From an uncultured Saprospiraceae bacterium (GTDB taxonomy: Bacteria; Bacteroidota; Bacteroidia; Chitinophagales; Saprospiraceae): a stretch of DNA of 38,174 bases. A program made the position numbers and the translations under genes. Below are positions 5,185 to 38,174 of the stretch, piece by piece. Location of the stretch: positions 1 to 38,174 of the forward strand of contig CALHBW010000097.1 in assembly GCA_937930625.1 (NCBI GenBank), written 5' to 3'. Below the pieces are notes generated by a model. That model was not told the DNA's origin, searched no databases, and was given only the letters and a program-made list of their open reading frames with translations. Each line of letters begins with the position of its first letter. Position 1 is the stretch's first letter.

Positions 5185-5336
5185 AGTTTATTGGTGATTG
5201 GTTTATTGAGTTTATTGGGTTTATTAAGTTTATTAAGTTATTAGATTTTAATTATTTGATAAAAAATAATTCTGATTTATCTTTTGCTAACTTAATAAAC
5301 TGAATGAACTTAATAAACTAAATGAACTAATCACTA
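5185..5336. repeat. Word-palindrome, GTTTATTGAG words (rplO|rpmD gap)
   Basis: Left arm gtttattgagtttattgggtttattaagtttattaagttattag; core aattatttgataaaaaataatt; right arm ctaacttaataaactgaatgaacttaataaactaaatgaactaatcac. Confidence 0.85.
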
Positions 5337-5527: not shown

Positions 5528-5693
5528 GAGTTGACGAGTTGTTGAGTTGTTGAGTTGTTGTTTTGGTGAGTATCGGTTTGATGATTTGTCGGCTTGGTGA
5601 GTTGTTATGTTATCGTTTTTCGACAACTCTACAACTCGTTAATTCGTCAATTCATCAATTCGTCAACTCTACAACTCGTCAACTCACCAAAAC
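5528..5693. repeat. Word-palindrome, GAGTTGTT/GAGTTGAC words (rpmD|rpsE gap)
   Basis: gagttgacgagttgt (5528-5542) is the exact complement of acaactcgtcaactc (5671-5685). gttttggtgag (5560-5570) is the exact complement of ctcaccaaaac (5683-5693). Confidence 0.9.
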
Positions 5694-5698
5694 GTTGC

Positions 5699-6319
5699 TT
5701 ATCCGTTGAATAATTTATCCATTGTGATGCCGCGTGCTTTCGCAATTTCCATTGGGCTGCGAAGTTGTGAGAGGGCATCTAAGGTAGCTTTGATAACGTT
5801 GTGTGGATTGGGCGAACCTTGTGTTTTTGCCAATACGTTTTGAATACCGGCAATCTCCAATACTGCACGCATCGGACCACCCGCGATTACACCTGTACCA
5901 TCAGAAGCCGGCTTGATGAGGACTTTACCTGCACCGTATTTCCCTTTGACCGCATAAGGAATTGTTCCTTTGTGAAGTGGAAATTCGATGACGTTTTTCT
6001 TTGCATCATCAACAGCTTTGGCGATAGCCTCTTGTACGTCACGAGCTTTACCTAAGCCGTGCCCTACTTTGCCTTTGCCATTACCAACTACAACGACTGC
6101 CGCAAAACTGAATGTACGACCACCTTTGGTAACTTTTGCTACACGATTCAGGTTGACAAGTTTTTCTTTAAACTCGGATTCCTGAACGGATGCTTGTCTA
6201 TCGCCACGACCTCTGCCGCCTCTGCGATTGCCACCACGGTTATTACCTCCACCGCGATTGTTGCCACCACCACGGTTATCACCACCGCCGCGATTATTAT
6301 TATTTCTGTTATCAGCCAT
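5699..6319 (-). CDS. rpsE: 30S ribosomal protein S5 with a ~45-aa N-terminal RGG-rich extension
   Basis: 206 aa. The S5 core starts around [27 protein letters not shown]-terminus is [42 protein letters not shown]. Confidence 0.95.
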
Positions 6320-6333
6320 AATTAAGTCTTGTG

Positions 6334-6470
6334 AAGTTTAAGTTTAAGTCTAAGTTTAAGTTTAAAAATTATTTTTTTTCAAAAAATAATAATTTATTAT
6401 GAATTTACATTATATAAATTTAATTGAAAATTAAATTTTTAAACTTAAACTTAAACTTAAACTTAAACTT
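6334..6470. repeat. Word-palindrome, AGTTTA hexamers (rpsE|rplR gap)
   Basis: 33-nt arms 6334-6366 and 6438-6470 are complementary at 32/33. The 71-nt AT-rich loop contains the palindrome attattttttttc-aaaaaataat. Confidence 0.92.
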
Positions 6471-14397: not shown

Positions 14398-14532
14398 ACT
14401 TTCATTGTTACATGGTTTCATGGTTGTATTGTTTCATTGTTTTTTTTATTATTTATGAATTTTGCAAAGCAAAATTTAATAACTATATGAACATAAAAAC
14501 AATAAAGCAATCGAGCAATGAAACAATGAAAC
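14398..14532. repeat. Word-palindrome, TGGTTTCA words with TTTGCAAAGCAAA core (rplB|rplW gap)
   Basis: Left arm ctttcattgttacatggtttcatggttgtattgtttcattg; core 14461-14473; right arm caataaagcaatcgagcaatgaaacaatgaaacc. Confidence 0.85.
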
Positions 14533-26581: not shown

Positions 26582-27189
26582 ACGAATCACCGATCACCAA
26601 GCAATTAGACTTTGAAAAAGGCGGCGGCATCCTCCCCGCCATCATTCAGGATAGCGACACCCGCCAAGTCCTCATGCTCGGCTACATGAACCGCGAAGCA
26701 CTCAACAAAACCCTCGCAGAAGGGCGCGTCACCTTCTACAGTCGCAGCAAAGAACGCCTCTGGACAAAAGGCAAAACCTCCGGCAACTACCTCACTATCA
26801 AGGAAATAAAAATAGATTGTGACAACGATACGATACTCGTACAGGCAAGCCCCGCAGGTCCCGTCTGTCATACGGGCAGCGATACTTGCTTTGATGAAAC
26901 CAACGAAAACCAACACTTTTTACAGCACTTGGAGCGCGTTATACAGCAGCGACGCGACGAGCCTTCGGGCGAGTCCTACACCAGTTCGTTATTCCGCAAA
27001 GGCATCAACAAAGTCGCCCAAAAAGTAGGCGAAGAAGCCGTAGAACTCGTCATCGAAGCCAAAGACGACAACGACGACCTCTTTCTCGGCGAAGCGGCAG
27101 ATTTGATGTATCATTACCTCGTCCTGCTTGCCGCCAAAGGCAAAACCCTCAAAGATGTCATCCAAGTACTCGAATCAAGGCATAAATGA
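26578..27189 (+). CDS. hisIE: Bifunctional phosphoribosyl-AMP cyclohydrolase / phosphoribosyl-ATP pyrophosphatase
   Basis: ORF 26551..27189 trimmed to the Met at 26578 (ATGA overlap with the GNAT stop). HisI motifs LPAIIQD...YSRSKERLWTKGKTSGN...CDNDT...CHTG and a HisE C-terminal half. Confidence 0.9.
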   Translation: MNESPITKQLDFEKGGGILPAIIQDSDTRQVLMLGYMNREALNKTLAEGRVTFYSRSKERLWTKGKTSGNYLTIKEIKIDCDNDTILVQASPAGPVCHTGSDTCFDETNENQHFLQHLERVIQQRRDEPSGESYTSSLFRKGINKVAQKVGEEAVELVIEAKDDNDDLFLGEAADLMYHYLVLLAAKGKTLKDVIQVLESRHK

Positions 27190-27196
27190 TAATTAC

Positions 27197-27320
27197 ATTG
27201 TTTCATAGTTTCATGGTTCGATTGTTTGATGGTTCGATTGCCAGATGGTTTAGCCGTTTTTTTGCTTCGCAAAAAAACGATAATAATAATGAAACAATGA
27301 AACCATCAAACAATCGAATC
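27197..27320. repeat. Word-palindrome, GGTTCGATTGTTTGATGG words with TTTGCTTCGCAAA core; overlaps the glycosyltransferase start
   Basis: Left arm attgtttcatagtttcatggttcgattgtttgatggttcgattg; core 27257-27277; right arm aatgaaacaatgaaaccatcaaacaatcgaatc. An 18-nt run, ttcgattgtttgatggtt, is complementary. The ATG at 27297 lies in the right arm. Confidence 0.88.
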
Positions 27321-28862
27321 ATCCTCATTTTCTTCGCCTTTTTCTTCCTCATTCGGCTCATCGGCATTACCAATTCGCCACTCGAAATCGGGCATAATTG
27401 GCGGCAATGCCTCACGAATATGGTCGCAAGAAATTTCCTCGAAATCGACGCGAATATTTTCTTTCCACGCATCGACATTGCAGGCGAGAAAACGGGCATT
27501 ATGGGCGCAGAATTTCCACTGTTCAATTACTTGATTTACTTGGCTTCGTGGCTCTTTGGTGAGACGCATTGGCATGGTCGGTGGATAAATTTAATCGTCT
27601 CTACCGCAGGTATTTATTATTATTTTTTATTGGTAAAAGAATTATTTAACAAAAAAATAGCCGCTTACGCGACCATTATTTTGACCGTATCTGTATGGTT
27701 TGATTTTTCGCGTAAAATAATGCCCGACACCTTCAGCGTCGCGCTCGTGCTAATTGGGTTTTACTACGGTTTTTGCTATCTCAAAAAAGGAAATTTTTGG
27801 CGACTTGCACTCTTTTTTGCACTCATTACATTAGGCATTTTAAGCAAATTATCTGCCCTTAGCCTAATGAGCTTTCTGCTGATTCCCCTCTTAATTCCAC
27901 AAATAAAAATCGGACGTAAAATCGCTATGACATTGGCGGCTGCCTTGTGCGTCACATTGGTCGGCGCATGGTATTTTTATTGGGTGCCACATTTAGCAGA
28001 AGCGTATGGTTACATGCTTTATTTCCCAAGAAGCCTTGCAGAAGGCGCAGCAGAAATCGCAGTATTATGGCAACTGACTTTGGAGAAATTTTACTTTAGT
28101 GCCTTTCATTCTTATGTGGCTTTTGCGTGTTTTTTGGTGGGTTTGTTTGTTTTATTTTTTAATAATTTTTGGACTCGAAATAAAATCGAAAATTCGCGCT
28201 CTGTGTCGTCCTCCCCCCAGCCCCCTCCAAAGGGGGAGACGAATGCGAGTAGTTCTTCGCTTCGCGAAGAATCTCCCCCTTTGGAGGGGGCTGGGGGGTG
28301 GAAAAACGGTAAAGCGCATTTTTTTAATTTAATTAATGATAAAAAAATATTTTATTTAAAGATAGGAATAATCACATTCGCACTGATTTTCTTTTTATTT
28401 ATGCTAAAAACGGGCGAAGTATTCCCTCTGCATAATTATTACATCATTCCTGCTGTGCCTTTGATGGCTTTAGTTGCTGCTTTATTTCTCGCTAATTTAA
28501 AACCCAAATACGCGCTAATTATTCTGACCGTCATCACAATTGAAGGCATTGCCAATCAGTACCATGAATTTTTTATCAAAAAAAATGAGCGTTATAAATT
28601 AACATTGGAAAGCATTGCAGATAAGATAACGCAAGCAGACGACCTCATCATCATCAACGACGGCAGCCGCAACCCACAACAAATGTACTTCGCCCACCGC
28701 AAAGGCTGGACGATTAATCAGGAAGACCTCAACCCCGCACATATCGCTCAAATGCAGACACTTGGCGCAAGTTATTTATTCGTCAACAAAAATTTATCAC
28801 AACAAAAATTTGAATATAAAACAGTGTACGAAGACAAGCATTACATCATCTACAAATTATAA
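27297..28862 (+). CDS. ArnT/PMT-like (GT39/GT83-type) membrane glycosyltransferase
   Basis: ORF 27186..28862. All candidate starts lie inside a repeat; Met38 (27297) precedes the first TM. Polytopic N-terminal part with a soluble C-terminal part. Carries an in-frame GC-rich palindrome at 28213..28298. Confidence 0.7.
   Translation: MKPSNNRIILIFFAFFFLIRLIGITNSPLEIGHNWRQCLTNMVARNFLEIDANIFFPRIDIAGEKTGIMGAEFPLFNYLIYLASWLFGETHWHGRWINLIVSTAGIYYYFLLVKELFNKKIAAYATIILTVSVWFDFSRKIMPDTFSVALVLIGFYYGFCYLKKGNFWRLALFFALITLGILSKLSALSLMSFLLIPLLIPQIKIGRKIAMTLAAALCVTLVGAWYFYWVPHLAEAYGYMLYFPRSLAEGAAEIAVLWQLTLEKFYFSAFHSYVAFACFLVGLFVLFFNNFWTRNKIENSRSVSSSPQPPPKGETNASSSSLREESPPLEGAGGWKNGKAHFFNLINDKKIFYLKIGIITFALIFFLFMLKTGEVFPLHNYYIIPAVPLMALVAALFLANLKPKYALIILTVITIEGIANQYHEFFIKKNERYKLTLESIADKITQADDLIIINDGSRNPQQMYFAHRKGWTINQEDLNPAHIAQMQTLGASYLFVNKNLSQQKFEYKTVYEDKHYIIYKL
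28213..28298. repeat. GC-rich palindromic element (27-bp perfect IR) inside a CDS
   Basis: ccccccagccccctccaaagggggaga (28213-28239) is the exact reverse complement of 28272-28298. The spacer holds ttcttcgc-ttc-gcgaagaa. Translated in frame as SPQPPPKGETNASSSSLREESPPLEGAGGW. Confidence 0.92.
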
Positions 28863-28863
28863 A

Positions 28864-28982
28864 CCCGTCAACTCATCAATTCGTCACCTCATCAACCCGT
28901 CAACTCATCAATTCATGAACCCGTCACCTCATCAACTCGTCAACTCGTCAACTCATCAACCCGTCAATTCATCAACCCGTCA
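28864..28982. repeat. One-armed ~119-bp tandem array of CCGTCAACTCATCAAC-type words
   Basis: About 7 units with a period near 16 nt. Same word family as the right arm of 5528..5693. No complementary arm nearby. Confidence 0.88.
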
Positions 28983-29020
28983 AAAAAAAATGGTCTGCCG
29001 CGAAAAACGCATCAGACCAT
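28982..29020 (-). terminator. Second terminator-like hairpin downstream of hutH
   Basis: The minus strand reads atggtctg-15 nt-cagaccat followed by T9 (A9 at 28982-28990 on +). Confidence 0.55.
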
Positions 29021-30812: not shown

Positions 30813-31028
30813 TTGTCGTTGATTCGTTATTCGTTGATTCGTTATCCGTGTATTCGTTACTCGTGTATTCGTTATTCGTTGACTCGTTATTTGTTGATTT
30901 TATTTGCCAAAGGCAAAATAAAAAAACAAGTACACGAATAACGAGTACACGAAATAACGGGTACACAAATAACGAATACACGAGTCAACGAAACACGAAT
31001 AACGAATCAACGAATAACGAATACACGA
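30813..31028. repeat. ~216-bp word-palindrome, CGAATAA/CGTGTAT words with TTTGCCAAAGGCAAA core
   Basis: ~86-nt left arm and ~104-nt right arm. For example attcgttattcgttgattcgttatccgtgt is complementary, bar 1 mismatch, to acacgaataacgaatcaacgaataacgaat. Core at 30903-30917. The right arm ends 1 nt before the recN ATG. Confidence 0.9.
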
Positions 31029-37413: not shown

Positions 37414-38001
37414 TTAATTTGTTAGTAGTCCTTTGAGATAATATTCTAATTTCGGGTCTTCTTTAATGAGGTTTTTGAGTTCGTTCATACATTTGGAACT
37501 GTTGTTTCTGACGGTGCCGAGTTTCAGACCTATTGCTTCGGCAATCTCCTCCAGTTTCATTCCTTCCACATAACGCATCAGAATGATTTCTTGACACATC
37601 TGTTTAAGTTTGGCTTGAAAAAGCCGACCGACATTTTCTAATATTTCTTCATCAAACACCTTCATCGTTGTTGAAAATTTGCTTTCATGTCCAGGTGTTA
37701 TTCCATCTAATTTTTTTCGTCTAATCTCATTCAAAATCTTTCTATCTATCAAGGTGTAGAGAAATGCCTCAAGTGATCCTTTGTTTTTGTATTCAAACTT
37801 GCCCGCCTTGATTTTTTCAAACAAGGTCGTTATTCCATAAATGAAAACGCTGTGCTTATCCTCATCATTAAAATAAGCCGGAATACGCTTACTATGCTTT
37901 CGCATCAAGTAGGCTTCATCCTTAATGAGCCATTTCACTCCTTCGTTTTCCTCCTTCCGGTTGCCGGAACTGAGCAGGTCGTAGATTTTCTTGTCGTCCA
38001 T
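37414..38001 (-). CDS. RNA polymerase sigma-70 family (ECF-like) factor
   Basis: 195 aa. Region-4 HTH ..ILMRYVEGMKLEEIAEAIGLKLGTVRNNSSKCMNELK. Confidence 0.75.
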   Translation of the reverse strand: MDDKKIYDLLSSGNRKEENEGVKWLIKDEAYLMRKHSKRIPAYFNDEDKHSVFIYGITTLFEKIKAGKFEYKNKGSLEAFLYTLIDRKILNEIRRKKLDGITPGHESKFSTTMKVFDEEILENVGRLFQAKLKQMCQEIILMRYVEGMKLEEIAEAIGLKLGTVRNNSSKCMNELKNLIKEDPKLEYYLKGLLTN

Positions 38002-38106: not shown

Positions 38107-38174
38107 CTCCCCCCAACCCCCTCCAAAGGGGGAGACTTTCGCGGATATATGTCCCCCTTTGGAGGGGGTTGGGG
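38107..38174. repeat. Second copy of the GC-rich palindromic element (truncated by the window end)
   Basis: ccccccaaccccctccaaagggggaga has 1 mismatch to 28213-28239. The right arm tccccctttggagggggttgggg runs off the window. Confidence 0.85.

Follow-up and report, generated by a model that had tools for sequence, protein, structure and literature searches.

Structure of the palindrome-bearing glycosyltransferase gene

The window analyzed in this study is a 38,174-nt stretch of contig CALHBW010000097.1, originating from the metagenome-assembled genome (MAG, 70% complete) of an uncultured Saprospiraceae bacterium. It harbors a gene for a membrane glycosyltransferase that is traversed by a GC-rich palindrome embedded in AT-rich sequence. 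The following features were distinguished:

27297..28862, + strand: host gene encoding a GT39/PMT_2 membrane glycosyltransferase of the GT-C fold; alternative upstream start at 27186
28155..28340, + strand: whole inserted element, ~180 nt, boundaries +/-10 nt; encodes roughly FNNFWTRNKIENSRSVSSSPQPPPKGETNASSSSLREESPPLEGAGGWKNGKAHFFNLIND
28155..28209, + strand: AT-rich shell on the left side, with relatedness to the left terminus of the MITE family that has the terminal inverted repeat (TIR) GGTTCTTTGACAATTTTTGCA
28210..28240, + strand: C-rich arm TCCTCCCCCCAGCCCCCTCCAAAGGGGGAGA, of which 28213-28239 belong to the perfect inverted repeat
28240..28271, + strand: spacer of 32 nt with a mini-hairpin inside; slot of the DUF559 open reading frame in full-length relatives
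28272..28302, + strand: G-rich arm TCTCCCCCTTTGGAGGGGGCTGGGGGGTGGA; three-block layout C5-N6-G5-N2-G6, resembling the TMECO consensus of PMC4666352
28303..28340, + strand: right AT-rich shell, pairing partially with the left shell; right TIR not recognizable
38107..38174, no strand assigned: GC core in a second copy, located between genes and truncated by the contig end; spacer of 16 nt

The palindrome corresponds to the description given in the initial annotation, namely a 27-nt perfect inverted repeat composed of CCCCCCAGCCCCCTCCAAAGGGGGAGA (28213-28239) and its exact reverse complement (28272-28298), separated by a 32-nt spacer carrying the mini-hairpin TTCTTCGC-TTC-GCGAAGAA at 28253-28271. 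Pairing runs slightly beyond these arms (TCC..GGA, 28210-28302, one W mismatch), and the arm itself is organized in three blocks, C5/G5/G6 (CCCCC-TTTGGA-GGGGG-CT-GGGGGG). Its 18-mer core occurs four times within the window and was absent from 100 shuffles. Predicted folds of the palindrome are very stable, both as RNA (-93.6 kcal/mol, z -11.4) and as DNA (-55.2 kcal/mol, z -11.6), and reach into the shells via GCGCT..AGCGC. The claim that the reading frame passes through the element was likewise borne out, as the open reading frame 27186/27297..28862 is uninterrupted and yields SSSPQPPPKGETNASSSSLREESPPLEGAGGW. The arm is free of stop codons in all six frames; since the same applies to 49% of composition-matched shuffles, this property is a product of GC richness alone and was dropped as evidence for an adaptation. 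A second copy had been reported upstream of a sigma-factor gene and was found at 38107-38174, approximately 106 nt upstream of the sigma-factor-like open reading frame 37414..38001 (- strand), with one arm mismatch and a spacer differing from that of the first copy.

Searches of Rfam returned no fitting curated family, only generic hairpin (miRNA precursor) matches and, for a single arm, a sub-threshold match to whalefall-1 (22 bits versus a gathering score of 37). Moreover, blastn against a plasmid collection gave no match to the repeat, and the arm sequence appeared in no paper of the literature searched.

The host protein matches Pfam PF13231 (E 3e-14) and has more than 1000 homologues of ~467-475 aa; its best fold matches are ArnT (5F15/5EZM), PglB and PMT4. 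In the AF2 model, residues ~291-346, representing the insert, show pLDDT values of 27-42 and form a coil between confidently predicted helices. The model thus places the insert, as a disordered loop, between two transmembrane helices, in agreement with the earlier placement of the element in a loop between two hydrophobic segments. Comparison of the host gene with those of relatives resulted in dN/dS values of 0.09-0.12 at dS 0.35-1.05. These values indicate that the gene has remained functional and under purifying selection since the insertion and speak against a split or inactive gene, an outcome raised in the initial annotation. Based on frame conservation and dN/dS, the insert is probably translated as a Pro/Gly/Ser-rich disordered loop.

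Occupied and empty insertion sites

Insert size was deduced from two conserved motifs, KFYFSAFHSY and LKTGEVFPLH, which are 288 nt apart in the window, compared to 108 nt in orthologue L001, where the site is empty. The insert is missing from more than 100 orthologues, one of them 72% identical. Alignment with orthologues, proposed as a check in the initial annotation, thereby identified the element as a lineage-specific insertion lacking outside a small clade. The insert of ~30 residues (86 nt) assumed previously stands as the GC core, but its size had to be revised, the real unit being ~180 nt (~60 aa) and including the AT-rich shell.

Four to five close relatives (P0002-P0006) are occupied at the same GT39 site, with interiors differing between them; for three of these (L002, L003 and L004) the DNA was read. 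Inter-motif distances at occupied sites are 288, 210, 249 and 540 nt and differ from the 108 nt of the empty site by multiples of three in every case. All four length variants are stop-free, and the frame of the host gene is kept by every surviving insert variant. One relative reads the arm in a different frame. The spacer module of the window copy recurs in L004 and at the MAG locus C582 with its loop flipped (TTC to GAA) and is inverted in L002, while L002 and L004 have kept the arms and lack the shell. These differences indicate that the interior was remodelled after insertion by inversion of the spacer between the arms, duplication of 33-nt tandem units and loss of the shell.

Among the relatives, the arms are identical at 58-61 of 62 positions, compared to ~80% nucleotide identity for the gene (pS 0.54, dS about 1), an unusual degree of conservation that goes beyond neutrality. 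The distribution of occupied sites points to a single insertion in the common ancestor of a small clade within the Saprospiraceae or, alternatively, to repeated occupation of one hot-spot site, two histories that the data do not separate. A target-site duplication (TSD) was not recoverable at the window copy, and dS versus the empty-site orthologue is saturated.

The repeat family in the genome and in the phylum

In total, 100 arm matches representing approximately 58 loci were detected in the MAG, including 48 exact copies of the 26-mer arm. Besides single arms, head-to-head and tail-to-tail arrangements joined by specific linkers were encountered. Roughly one in four loci (~15 of 58) is read through in a long open reading frame, among them the genes encoding PBP1C, KdtA, GT4 and a second GT39-like protein. 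At all eight loci featuring long open flanks on both sides, the same frame is kept. The copy count proposed earlier accordingly uncovered a family, roughly one fourth of which lies inside long open reading frames. Concerning its distribution, the exact arm was found in none of 400 sampled Bacteroidota genomes and is present in records of Saprospiraceae, Cytophagales, Flavobacteriales and Bacteroidales.

The AT-rich shell

Over 60 ungapped nucleotides, the left shell is 62-67% identical to the shells of three intergenic copies (C575, C415 and C582), exceeding the background obtained from other arm flanks (median 27%, 95th percentile 46%). When compared as an inverted repeat, left and right flank reach an identity of 0.42, and no right terminal repeat is recognizable at the window copy. 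The shell family possessing the TIR GGTTCTTTGACAATTTTTGCA comprises ~45 copies with varied cargo, and 21 of the 30 pairs display an 8-bp TSD. The GC pair is likewise present in a second family of shells (TIR AAGGGTTTTCTCATAAAA), three type-1 copies of which feature TSDs of 9-10 bp. On sequence comparison, the window copy is thus a composite of a MITE-like AT-rich shell and a GC core. An autonomous IS with the TIRs of either family was not assembled in the 70%-complete MAG; candidate IS ends are located at two contig ends only (C13:9907 and C78:5305).

It is conceivable that the element is an ordinary MITE, moved by a DDE transposase acting on the shell terminal repeats, in which the GC pair is passive cargo and the nearness of DUF559 genes described below is incidental. 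The similarity of the left shell to the first family, the abundance, diverse cargo and TSDs of that family, and the presence of the GC pair in the second one all fit this possibility. However, conservation across species and orders belongs to the GC arms and not to the shells, the arms outlast the shell in L002 and L004, the adjacency of arms and DUF559 is far above the expectation from arm density, and the transposase source would be an IS represented by two candidate ends only. Hence, an explanation by the shell alone is considered possible, albeit clearly the less probable one.

Association of the arms with DUF559 nuclease genes

DUF559, a domain whose function is unknown, is very common. 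Arms of the same type, or variants of them, were located ~20-250 nt from DUF559 genes in no fewer than 13 genomes and additionally at locus C575, where the DUF559 copy, truncated by the contig end, adjoins the most similar element of the MAG. In one 2.6-Mb genome, the sole arm lies 19 nt past the DUF559 stop codon; five of 20 arm-bearing genomes are without detectable DUF559. Furthermore, other DUF559 subfamilies are accompanied by co-varying arm variants, and the flanking arms in other Bacteroidota follow the pattern CCTCACCCC-NN-CCCTCTCC-loop-GGAGAGGG, a close fit to the TMECO layout. By eye, a GC-rich arm-type repeat flanks DUF559 at ~24 of 28 loci, and 12 of the 28 exceed the 95th percentile of a control composed of mismatched upstream/downstream pairs from different loci, a conservative choice given that different loci have related arm variants. 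These results indicate that one and the same module forms the arms of the window copy and, in many Bacteroidota, the bracket around small DUF559 nuclease genes (Vsr-like, PD-(D/E)xK). No paper tying DUF559 to repeats was found in the literature searched.

In other Bacteroidota, DUF559 was also found nested in frame within LeuRS, MetH, Acs, iPGM and HsdR, flanked by arm-encoded peptides in the order C-arm, DUF559, G-arm. At least 13 such cassettes are in frame and stop-free. The LeuRS cassette occupies one site, between QRNWIG.SEG and EVFTTRPDT, in four genomes (L125, L133, L135 and L140), and the LeuRS gene of the MAG represents the empty site. Pfam analysis of three nested cassettes recovered host domains and DUF559 only. 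Judged from these sequences, an arm-DUF559-arm cassette resides in frame inside housekeeping genes of other genomes. In the window copy, the arms are separated by 32 nt, with no nuclease open reading frame. As DUF559 is encoded in relatives that share its arms, this copy is at most a derivative of a nuclease element; it presumably represents a nuclease-less miniature of the cassette. A cognate DUF559 protein may recognize the arms and thereby maintain or spread them, and such recognition would explain their near-invariance across species and orders. Alternatively, gene conversion among the ~100 arms of the genome could account for their conservation with no nuclease involved.

Proposed origin of the insert

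Taken together, the 86-nt palindrome is interpreted as the core of a ~180-nt non-autonomous mobile element that is read through in frame, consists of a MITE-like shell and GC arms, and is linked to DUF559 cassettes by its arms, with an estimated probability of about 0.8. The element, an AT-rich MITE-like shell surrounding an inverted pair of GC-rich three-block arms, entered a short loop between two transmembrane helices of the GT39 glycosyltransferase. Arms would be kept or spread by putative recognition through a cognate DUF559 protein; the jump into the glycosyltransferase gene may alternatively have been accomplished via the shell terminal repeats and a DDE transposase. From the initial suggestion of a mobile palindromic REP/MITE-like unit tolerated as a protein loop, insertion, tolerance and MITE-like character are retained, and the classical REP assignment is given up, as the RAYT-like genes possess their own GTAG-tagged REPs.

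A more general proposal, for which the odds appear about even, is that GC three-block arms and DUF559 constitute a selfish element residing inside coding genes without an intron or intein. For the nuclease, the arms would be putative sites of recognition or maintenance; at the same time they would encode stop-poor Pro/Gly linkers, so that cassette or miniature is translated as a harmless loop, and BoxC/TMECO motifs beside Escherichia coli ycjD would be the proteobacterial face of the same element. The literature searched contains no description of a selfish element composed of GC arms and DUF559.

Three further explanations were weighed against the mobile element and found very improbable. The hairpin could be a feature selected by the host, either as an mRNA structure pausing translation for membrane insertion or as a useful loop. 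Its persistence over dS ~1 in a gene under purifying selection and its extremely stable RNA fold are compatible with a host function; yet the same module occurs at ~58 unrelated loci, coding as well as intergenic, each relative has an insert with an interior and a length of its own, one of them using another arm frame, and more than 100 orthologues work without it.

Removal of the insert before the protein matures, by stem-guided RNA excision, ribosomal bypassing or protein splicing, is hardly to be expected either. GC-rich hop elements of yeast mitochondria and T4 gene 60 provide precedents, and the 30-bp GC stem formed by the arms draws the flanks together. This possibility is disfavored by the frame statistics, comprising the four stop-free length variants differing by multiples of three, the frame kept at 8/8 intragenic copies and the at least 13 nested DUF559 cassettes in frame without stops, as well as by Pfam, which identified no intein domain in three nested cassettes. 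Moreover, the window insert is not an intein because ~60 aa is too small for one.

Finally, a classical REP/REPIN (BIME-like) family mobilized by a RAYT (Y1/HUH) transposase was rejected: the BIME-like single, head-to-head and tail-to-tail arms with specific linkers and the two RAYT-like genes of the genome (C500 and C342) would be in favor of it, but each of these genes belongs with a different REP family, being flanked by its own GTAG-tagged REPs (CGTTTACTAAAC..GTTTAGTAAACGTAG and GTAGGGACAGGTCGCGACCTGTCCCTAC), roughly one copy in four lies inside a gene, and the GC arm TCCWCCCCCCARCCCCCTCCAAAGGGGGAGA contains neither GTAG nor CGTC, one of which is by definition conserved as a tetranucleotide at one end of a REP palindrome (PMC3733652).

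Comparison with known repeat and nuclease systems

In behavior, the element resembles the Rickettsia palindromic elements (RPEs; Ogata et al. 2000/2002), which the summary given in PMC10969869 describes as dispersed palindromes of ~100-150 nt in an AT-rich genome. According to the same summary, RPEs often lie in frame within housekeeping genes that are unrelated to each other and remain functional, and the insert is predicted to form a tolerated surface loop. The family described here behaves likewise (58 loci, ~15 of them in long open reading frames, frame kept at 8/8, host dN/dS 0.09-0.12). The likeness is an analogy of behavior and does not imply membership, because phylum and base composition differ: the host belongs to the Bacteroidota and not to the Alphaproteobacteria, and the core is GC-rich with a three-block arm. 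In further contrast to RPEs, a candidate partner nuclease, DUF559, is available, and full-length forms bearing it are also read in frame.

Bacterial MITEs such as QMITE1 of Coxiella, the Anabaena MITEs and ERIC (PMC10969869) are likewise small and non-autonomous, have inverted termini as do the related shell families, and occasionally form translational fusions with host open reading frames; the 8-10-bp TSDs of related shells also fit this pattern. In the present family, however, conservation resides in the internal GC pair and not in the termini, and neither a TSD nor a right TIR is recognizable at the window copy.

A pattern shared with REP/REPIN-RAYT systems ('REPtrons', PMC3733652) is a single-copy nuclease-type gene flanked by inverted short palindromes, with gene-less copies dispersed and the repeat sequence co-varying with the enzyme subfamily. 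Differences concern the enzyme, which is a Vsr-like PD-(D/E)xK DUF559 protein and not a Y1/HUH transposase, the missing GTAG/CGTC tag, and the copies, which are often intragenic and probably translated.

BoxC/PIT/TMECO are intrastrand-triplex motifs known from E. coli as well as from further Proteobacteria, with the TMECO consensus CCCTCNCCC N3-6 GGGNGAGGG N3 GGGNGAGGG (Holder et al. 2015, PMC4666352). They were described for Proteobacteria only, as intergenic motifs of unknown function; in that publication the term 'endonuclease' is never used, and 'coding' refers to strand labels and to flanking or non-coding regions, never to in-frame copies (PMC4666352). In sequence layout alone, the window arm is similar to them, featuring a C-block, a loop, a G-block, a short loop and a second G-block, and both repeats often form inverted pairs, are patchy between strains and lie in variable regions. 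In addition, motifs of the BoxC/TMECO type form the end of ycjD, a DUF559 gene of E. coli, and also follow it. The strict TMECO consensus gave no match in the genome, and with its C5/G5/G6 blocks the window arm was not assigned to the TMECOs in the strict sense.

Regarding the enzyme, the nuclease of the related cassettes belongs to the same clan (Vsr/DUF559) as Vsr-like homing endonucleases, including I-Bth0305I and those of 'fractured genes' (Dassa et al. 2009, PMC2677866; PD-(D/E)xK survey, PMC3424549). These target conserved sites of conserved genes, and a comparable situation was encountered here, the GT39 site being filled in four to five relatives and the LeuRS site in four genomes, with empty alleles elsewhere. 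Known cases, however, are free-standing open reading frames that break the host gene and need split inteins or group I introns, whereas the cassettes of this study are read through without intron or intein, their GC-rich inverted arms encode linkers, and the window copy is devoid of any nuclease.

Fungal mitochondria, with their AT-rich genomes, likewise contain short GC-rich palindromic mobile elements, known as GC clusters and double-hairpin elements, some of which lie in coding regions. These are organellar and unrelated in sequence, and some of them are bypassed by the ribosome and not translated.

Implications for protein evolution and annotation

To our knowledge, in-frame 'selfish DNA in proteins' has so far been essentially limited to the Rickettsia RPEs, for which we know of no partner or mobilizing enzyme. 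The family reported here would represent a second RPE-like bacterial case, with DUF559 as a concrete candidate enzyme and with nuclease-bearing forms that are predicted to be translated inside the essential enzymes LeuRS, MetH, Acs and iPGM. The nature of BoxC/TMECO, the role of solitary Vsr-like proteins and the origin of new protein loops and domains thereby become approachable questions. For genome annotation, such elements result in inflated protein lengths and spurious low-complexity peptides of the 'PLEGAGG/PQPPPKGE' type. Many contigs of the MAG terminate in the repeat; repeats of this family accordingly break short-read assemblies.

Structure of the palindrome and its position in the host protein

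The gene carrying the palindromic element encodes a GT39/PMT_2 membrane glycosyltransferase (PF13231), the AlphaFold model of which matches ArnT, PglB, ALG9/12 and Pmt4, all sharing the GT-C fold. The sequence features described in the initial annotation were recovered as follows:

28213-28239, forward strand: left arm, CCCCCCAGCCCCCTCCAAAGGGGGAGA
Between the arms: 32-nt spacer with the mini-hairpin TTCTTCGC-TTC-GCGAAGAA
28272-28298, forward strand: right arm, exact reverse complement of CCCCCCAGCCCCCTCCAAAGGGGGAGA, completing a perfect 27-nt inverted repeat
38107-38174: second copy with one arm mismatch and a different, 16-nt spacer, cut by the contig end, approx. 106 nt upstream of a sigma-factor-like ORF (minus strand)

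An 18-mer core of the arm occurred four times in the window and in none of 100 shuffles. For positions 28180-28330, fold energies of -93.6 kcal/mol (RNA; z = -11.4) and -55.2 kcal/mol (DNA) were calculated. The reading frame (27186/27297..28862, two candidate starts) indeed passes uninterrupted through the palindrome, and the arm is stop-free in six frames, as are 49% of shuffles.

More than 1000 homologues of the host protein were found, with a typical length of 465-475 aa. In the alignment, the insert is located after a helix ending in CFLVGLF and before a helix starting with YLKIG. It is absent from all distant orthologues, including P0007 (protein of record L001) at 72% identity. DNA records of three close relatives (L002, L003, L004) feature an element at the same site with differing interiors. 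Insert sizes were gauged as the spacing of the flanking conserved motifs, with L001 as the empty-site reference.

Spacing of conserved motifs flanking the insertion site
Window: 288 nt
L002: 210 nt; arm read in another frame (SPPPSPLQRGR)
L003: 249 nt
L004: 540 nt; spacer holds eight 33-nt tandem units
L001 (empty site): 108 nt

All spacing differences among these five sequences are multiples of 3. Moreover, the mini-hairpin loop is flipped (TTC to GAA) in the spacers of L004 and contig C582 of this genome relative to the window, and L002 harbors the window's spacer module in opposite orientation. Such flips and inversions would be the expected outcome of recombination between inverted arms.

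The proposal that the insert forms a protein loop agrees with the AlphaFold2 model, in which residues ~291-346 are coil (pLDDT 27-42) between confidently modeled transmembrane helices. Since GT-C enzymes have a periplasmic C-terminal domain, and since both the native loop and the one lying two helices downstream are rich in Lys, the insert loop is predicted to be cytoplasmic. Directly after the glycosyltransferase stop codon, an 8-nt-period tandem array of CCCGTCAACTCATCAA-like words (28864-28990) was observed, akin to the array at 5611-5706 (family D1).

Selection on the host gene and on the arms

Among insert-bearing lineages, dN/dS of the glycosyltransferase gene was 0.09-0.12, showing that the gene is still alive despite its insert. 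Its dS amounted to 0.35 between the window and L002, to 0.95-1.05 for L003 and L004, and was saturated relative to the empty-site orthologue. Over the same divergence, only 1-4 of the 62 positions in the two 31-nt arms changed, whereas neutral loop DNA would be expected to have changed at roughly half of its sites. Judged by these comparisons, the arms are abnormally conserved. The few changes between relatives are located at W/R positions that also vary among genomic copies.

Genomic repeat family and its shells

The metagenome-assembled genome GCA_937930625.1 comprises 587 contigs (4.18 Mb, 40% GC, 70% completeness). Counting of copies corroborated a genome-wide family: 100 arm matches (≤3 mismatches) in 58 loci, including 48 exact 26-mer arms. 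These are organized as C-arm-spacer-G-arm pairs of the window type, G-arm-14 nt-C-arm pairs in the middle of 300-nt palindromes, single arms, and arrays containing 30-nt sub-repeats. Numerous contigs terminate within the repeat. The intragenic fraction, likewise addressed, comprises approx. 15 of the 58 loci, which lie within long open frames. Hosts include PBP1C, KdtA, GT4, a second GT39-like gene (two inserts), other membrane proteins, an aminotransferase fusion and a HisC-IGPD frame. The frame is kept across the element in all eight loci having at least 90 open codons on each side.

At C519:6020-6087, the GC element represents the linker in a continuous 630-aa frame joining a HisC-like aminotransferase and an IGP-dehydratase domain, the latter without its own start codon; this gene fusion may have been mediated or hosted by the repeat. 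Translated tandem 30-33-nt units expanded in spacer or arms were seen in the glycosyltransferase gene of L004 (3001-4950), at C159:2155-2356 and at C445:8254-8572 (e.g., KEIKVDTLSSN x8, PPKGEMKKGS x3). Between identical flanks, C62:3002-3075 carries a full G-arm-loop-C-arm pair and C418:7011-7028 only the short palindrome CTCCCCCTCCAAAGGGGGAG, consistent with a filled and a collapsed state arising by deletion between CCCCC runs.

The window element extends over approx. 180 nt rather than 86 nt. Its left 60 nt share 62-67% identity with the left shells of intergenic copies on C575, C415 and C582 (background: median 27%, 95th percentile 46%). These shells are those of a MITE family whose TIR is GGTTCTTTGACAATTTTTGCA and for which 91 TIR matches, several different interiors and 8-bp TSDs in 21 of 30 complete pairs were obtained (e.g., C28:13640-13781, C187:4265-4406, C416:9470-9611). 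A second MITE family (TIR AAGGGTTTTCTCATAAAA, TSD 9-10 bp; C393:3676-3854, C344:3237-3414, C563:5976-6153) carries the same GC pair at its centre. The GC pair thus represents a module occurring in different shells. For the window copy, neither a TSD nor the right TIR was recoverable. TIR AAGGGTTTTCTCATAAAA also occurs at the contig ends C13:9907 and C78:5305, adjoining the beginning of an ORF in one case and the end of an ORF in the other; the two sites may mark the termini of an autonomous IS missing from the assembly.

A classical REP interpretation of the GC arm was rejected, as the two RAYT-like genes of this genome (C500:1446-2180 and C342:2020-2436; scores of 58 and 49 bits against NF047646, which has a cut-off of 80) are each bordered not by the GC arm but by their own GTAG-tagged REP doublets, one by CGTTTACTAAACTTTTCAAGTTTAGTAAACGTAG (~57 genomic copies), the other by GTAGGGACAGGTCGCGACCTGTCCCTAC.

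Association of the arms with DUF559 nuclease genes

In three Flavobacteriales records, a gene encoding a 125-143-aa protein with the Vsr-like nuclease domain DUF559 (PF04480, E 1e-26 to 1e-28) is bordered by arm pairs on both sides. The only DUF559 match in this genome (C575:2819-3004, cut by the contig end) lies approx. 220 nt away from a GC element, namely the one with the shell most similar to that of the window copy, and its product is ~90% identical to a Saprospiraceae DUF559 protein encoded between exact arms. DUF559 genes were detected in 15 of 20 arm-bearing genomes searched, and in at least 10 of these, canonical or variant arms lie ~20-250 nt from such a gene; the single arm of a 2.6-Mb Cryomorphaceae genome is positioned 19 nt past the DUF559 stop codon. 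Arms and nuclease genes co-vary, in that DUF559 paralogues without the canonical arm are bordered by other GC-rich inverted motifs in the same layout, e.g., TCACCCTCCGCCTTCGGCACCTCCCTCAAGGGAGGAGGG and CCTCACCCCCCAGCCCCTCTCC..GAGAGGGG. Of 28 DUF559 loci sampled at random from the class, ~24 featured flanking repeats of this layout, judged by eye.

Furthermore, many sampled DUF559 domains reside mid-frame in long stop-free frames, within the following hosts:

LeuRS (same site in four genomes)
MetH (two cases) and HsdR (two cases)
Acs, iPGM, a MeaB-type protein and IleRS

Arm-encoded peptides occur on both sides of these domains (P.L.KGE upstream, SPSPLE.G.GE downstream). The C-arm-DUF559-G-arm layout corresponds to that of the window element, with the nuclease replacing the 32-nt spacer. 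Pfam places DUF559 within LeuRS, Acs and iPGM and returned no intein in these cassettes. One LeuRS cassette contains a near-canonical arm; the LeuRS of this genome has an empty cassette site. The arm-DUF559 association is statistically strong, any biochemical link being putative. In L125, L133, L135 and L140 (four genera), the LeuRS cassette is located immediately ahead of the editing domain; the same proteins carry arm-only scars elsewhere, e.g., PPPPPGEAGWG (L125) and SFGEGRDEA (L133).

Distribution across genomes

None of 400 Bacteroidota genomes, drawn evenly, contained the exact 26-mer arm. It was found in several Saprospiraceae MAGs, a Cytophagales MAG, Bacteroidales MAGs, Cryomorphaceae, Fluviicola, two Brumimicrobium isolates, Capnocytophaga, Mariniphaga and Thermoflexibacter, at 1 to 115 copies per genome. 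One exact arm is located on a contig assigned to a Ca. Kuenenia bin (Planctomycetota; L058:559-584), so that either this contig was binned wrongly or the arm has spread outside Bacteroidota. The patchy distribution and the near-identity between orders together fit an element that moves horizontally and is constrained in sequence.

Comparison with known systems

In-frame palindromic elements were described as RPE in Rickettsia, with sporadic cases among other MITEs (PMC10969869). Free-standing genes for Vsr-like homing endonucleases have been described in phage "fractured genes" and in group I introns (PMC2677866; PMC3424549), and the DUF559 proteins include VsrA of Caulobacter (PMC12907096). 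In layout, the window arm resembles the TMECO/BoxC/PIT motif of Proteobacteria (CCCTCNCCC N3-6 GGGNGAGGG N3 GGGNGAGGG), which is intergenic, has no known function and is tied to local instability according to a paper that does not mention an endonuclease (PMC4666352). However, the arm does not match the strict consensus, nor was any match to it obtained in this genome. The E. coli K-12 DUF559 gene ycjD ends in the BoxC/TMECO-like TCACCCTCTCCC..GAGGGGG, with CCCCTCTGGGGAGAGGGTTAGGGTGAGGGG 190 nt further on. After ycjD, a partial duplicate of its 3' end and a full TMECO-type motif were observed (L153, NC_000913.3 1351039-1351839). Literature searches retrieved no paper containing the arm sequence and none tying DUF559 to repeats.

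The reading of the palindrome as a mobile unit tolerated as a translated loop is upheld in both observation and interpretation. Two routes of movement would be compatible with the evidence: a DDE transposase may act on the shell, or a DUF559-dependent process on the arms.

Most intergenic gaps of the window contain long AT-rich hairpins of tandem 6-9-nt "words" (e.g., TTTCATGG, GTTTATTGA, TTAAGT), namely at 1692-1822, 5194-5334, 6334-6470, 14400-14531 and 30816-31028, the largest having 77-nt arms with 84% complementarity.
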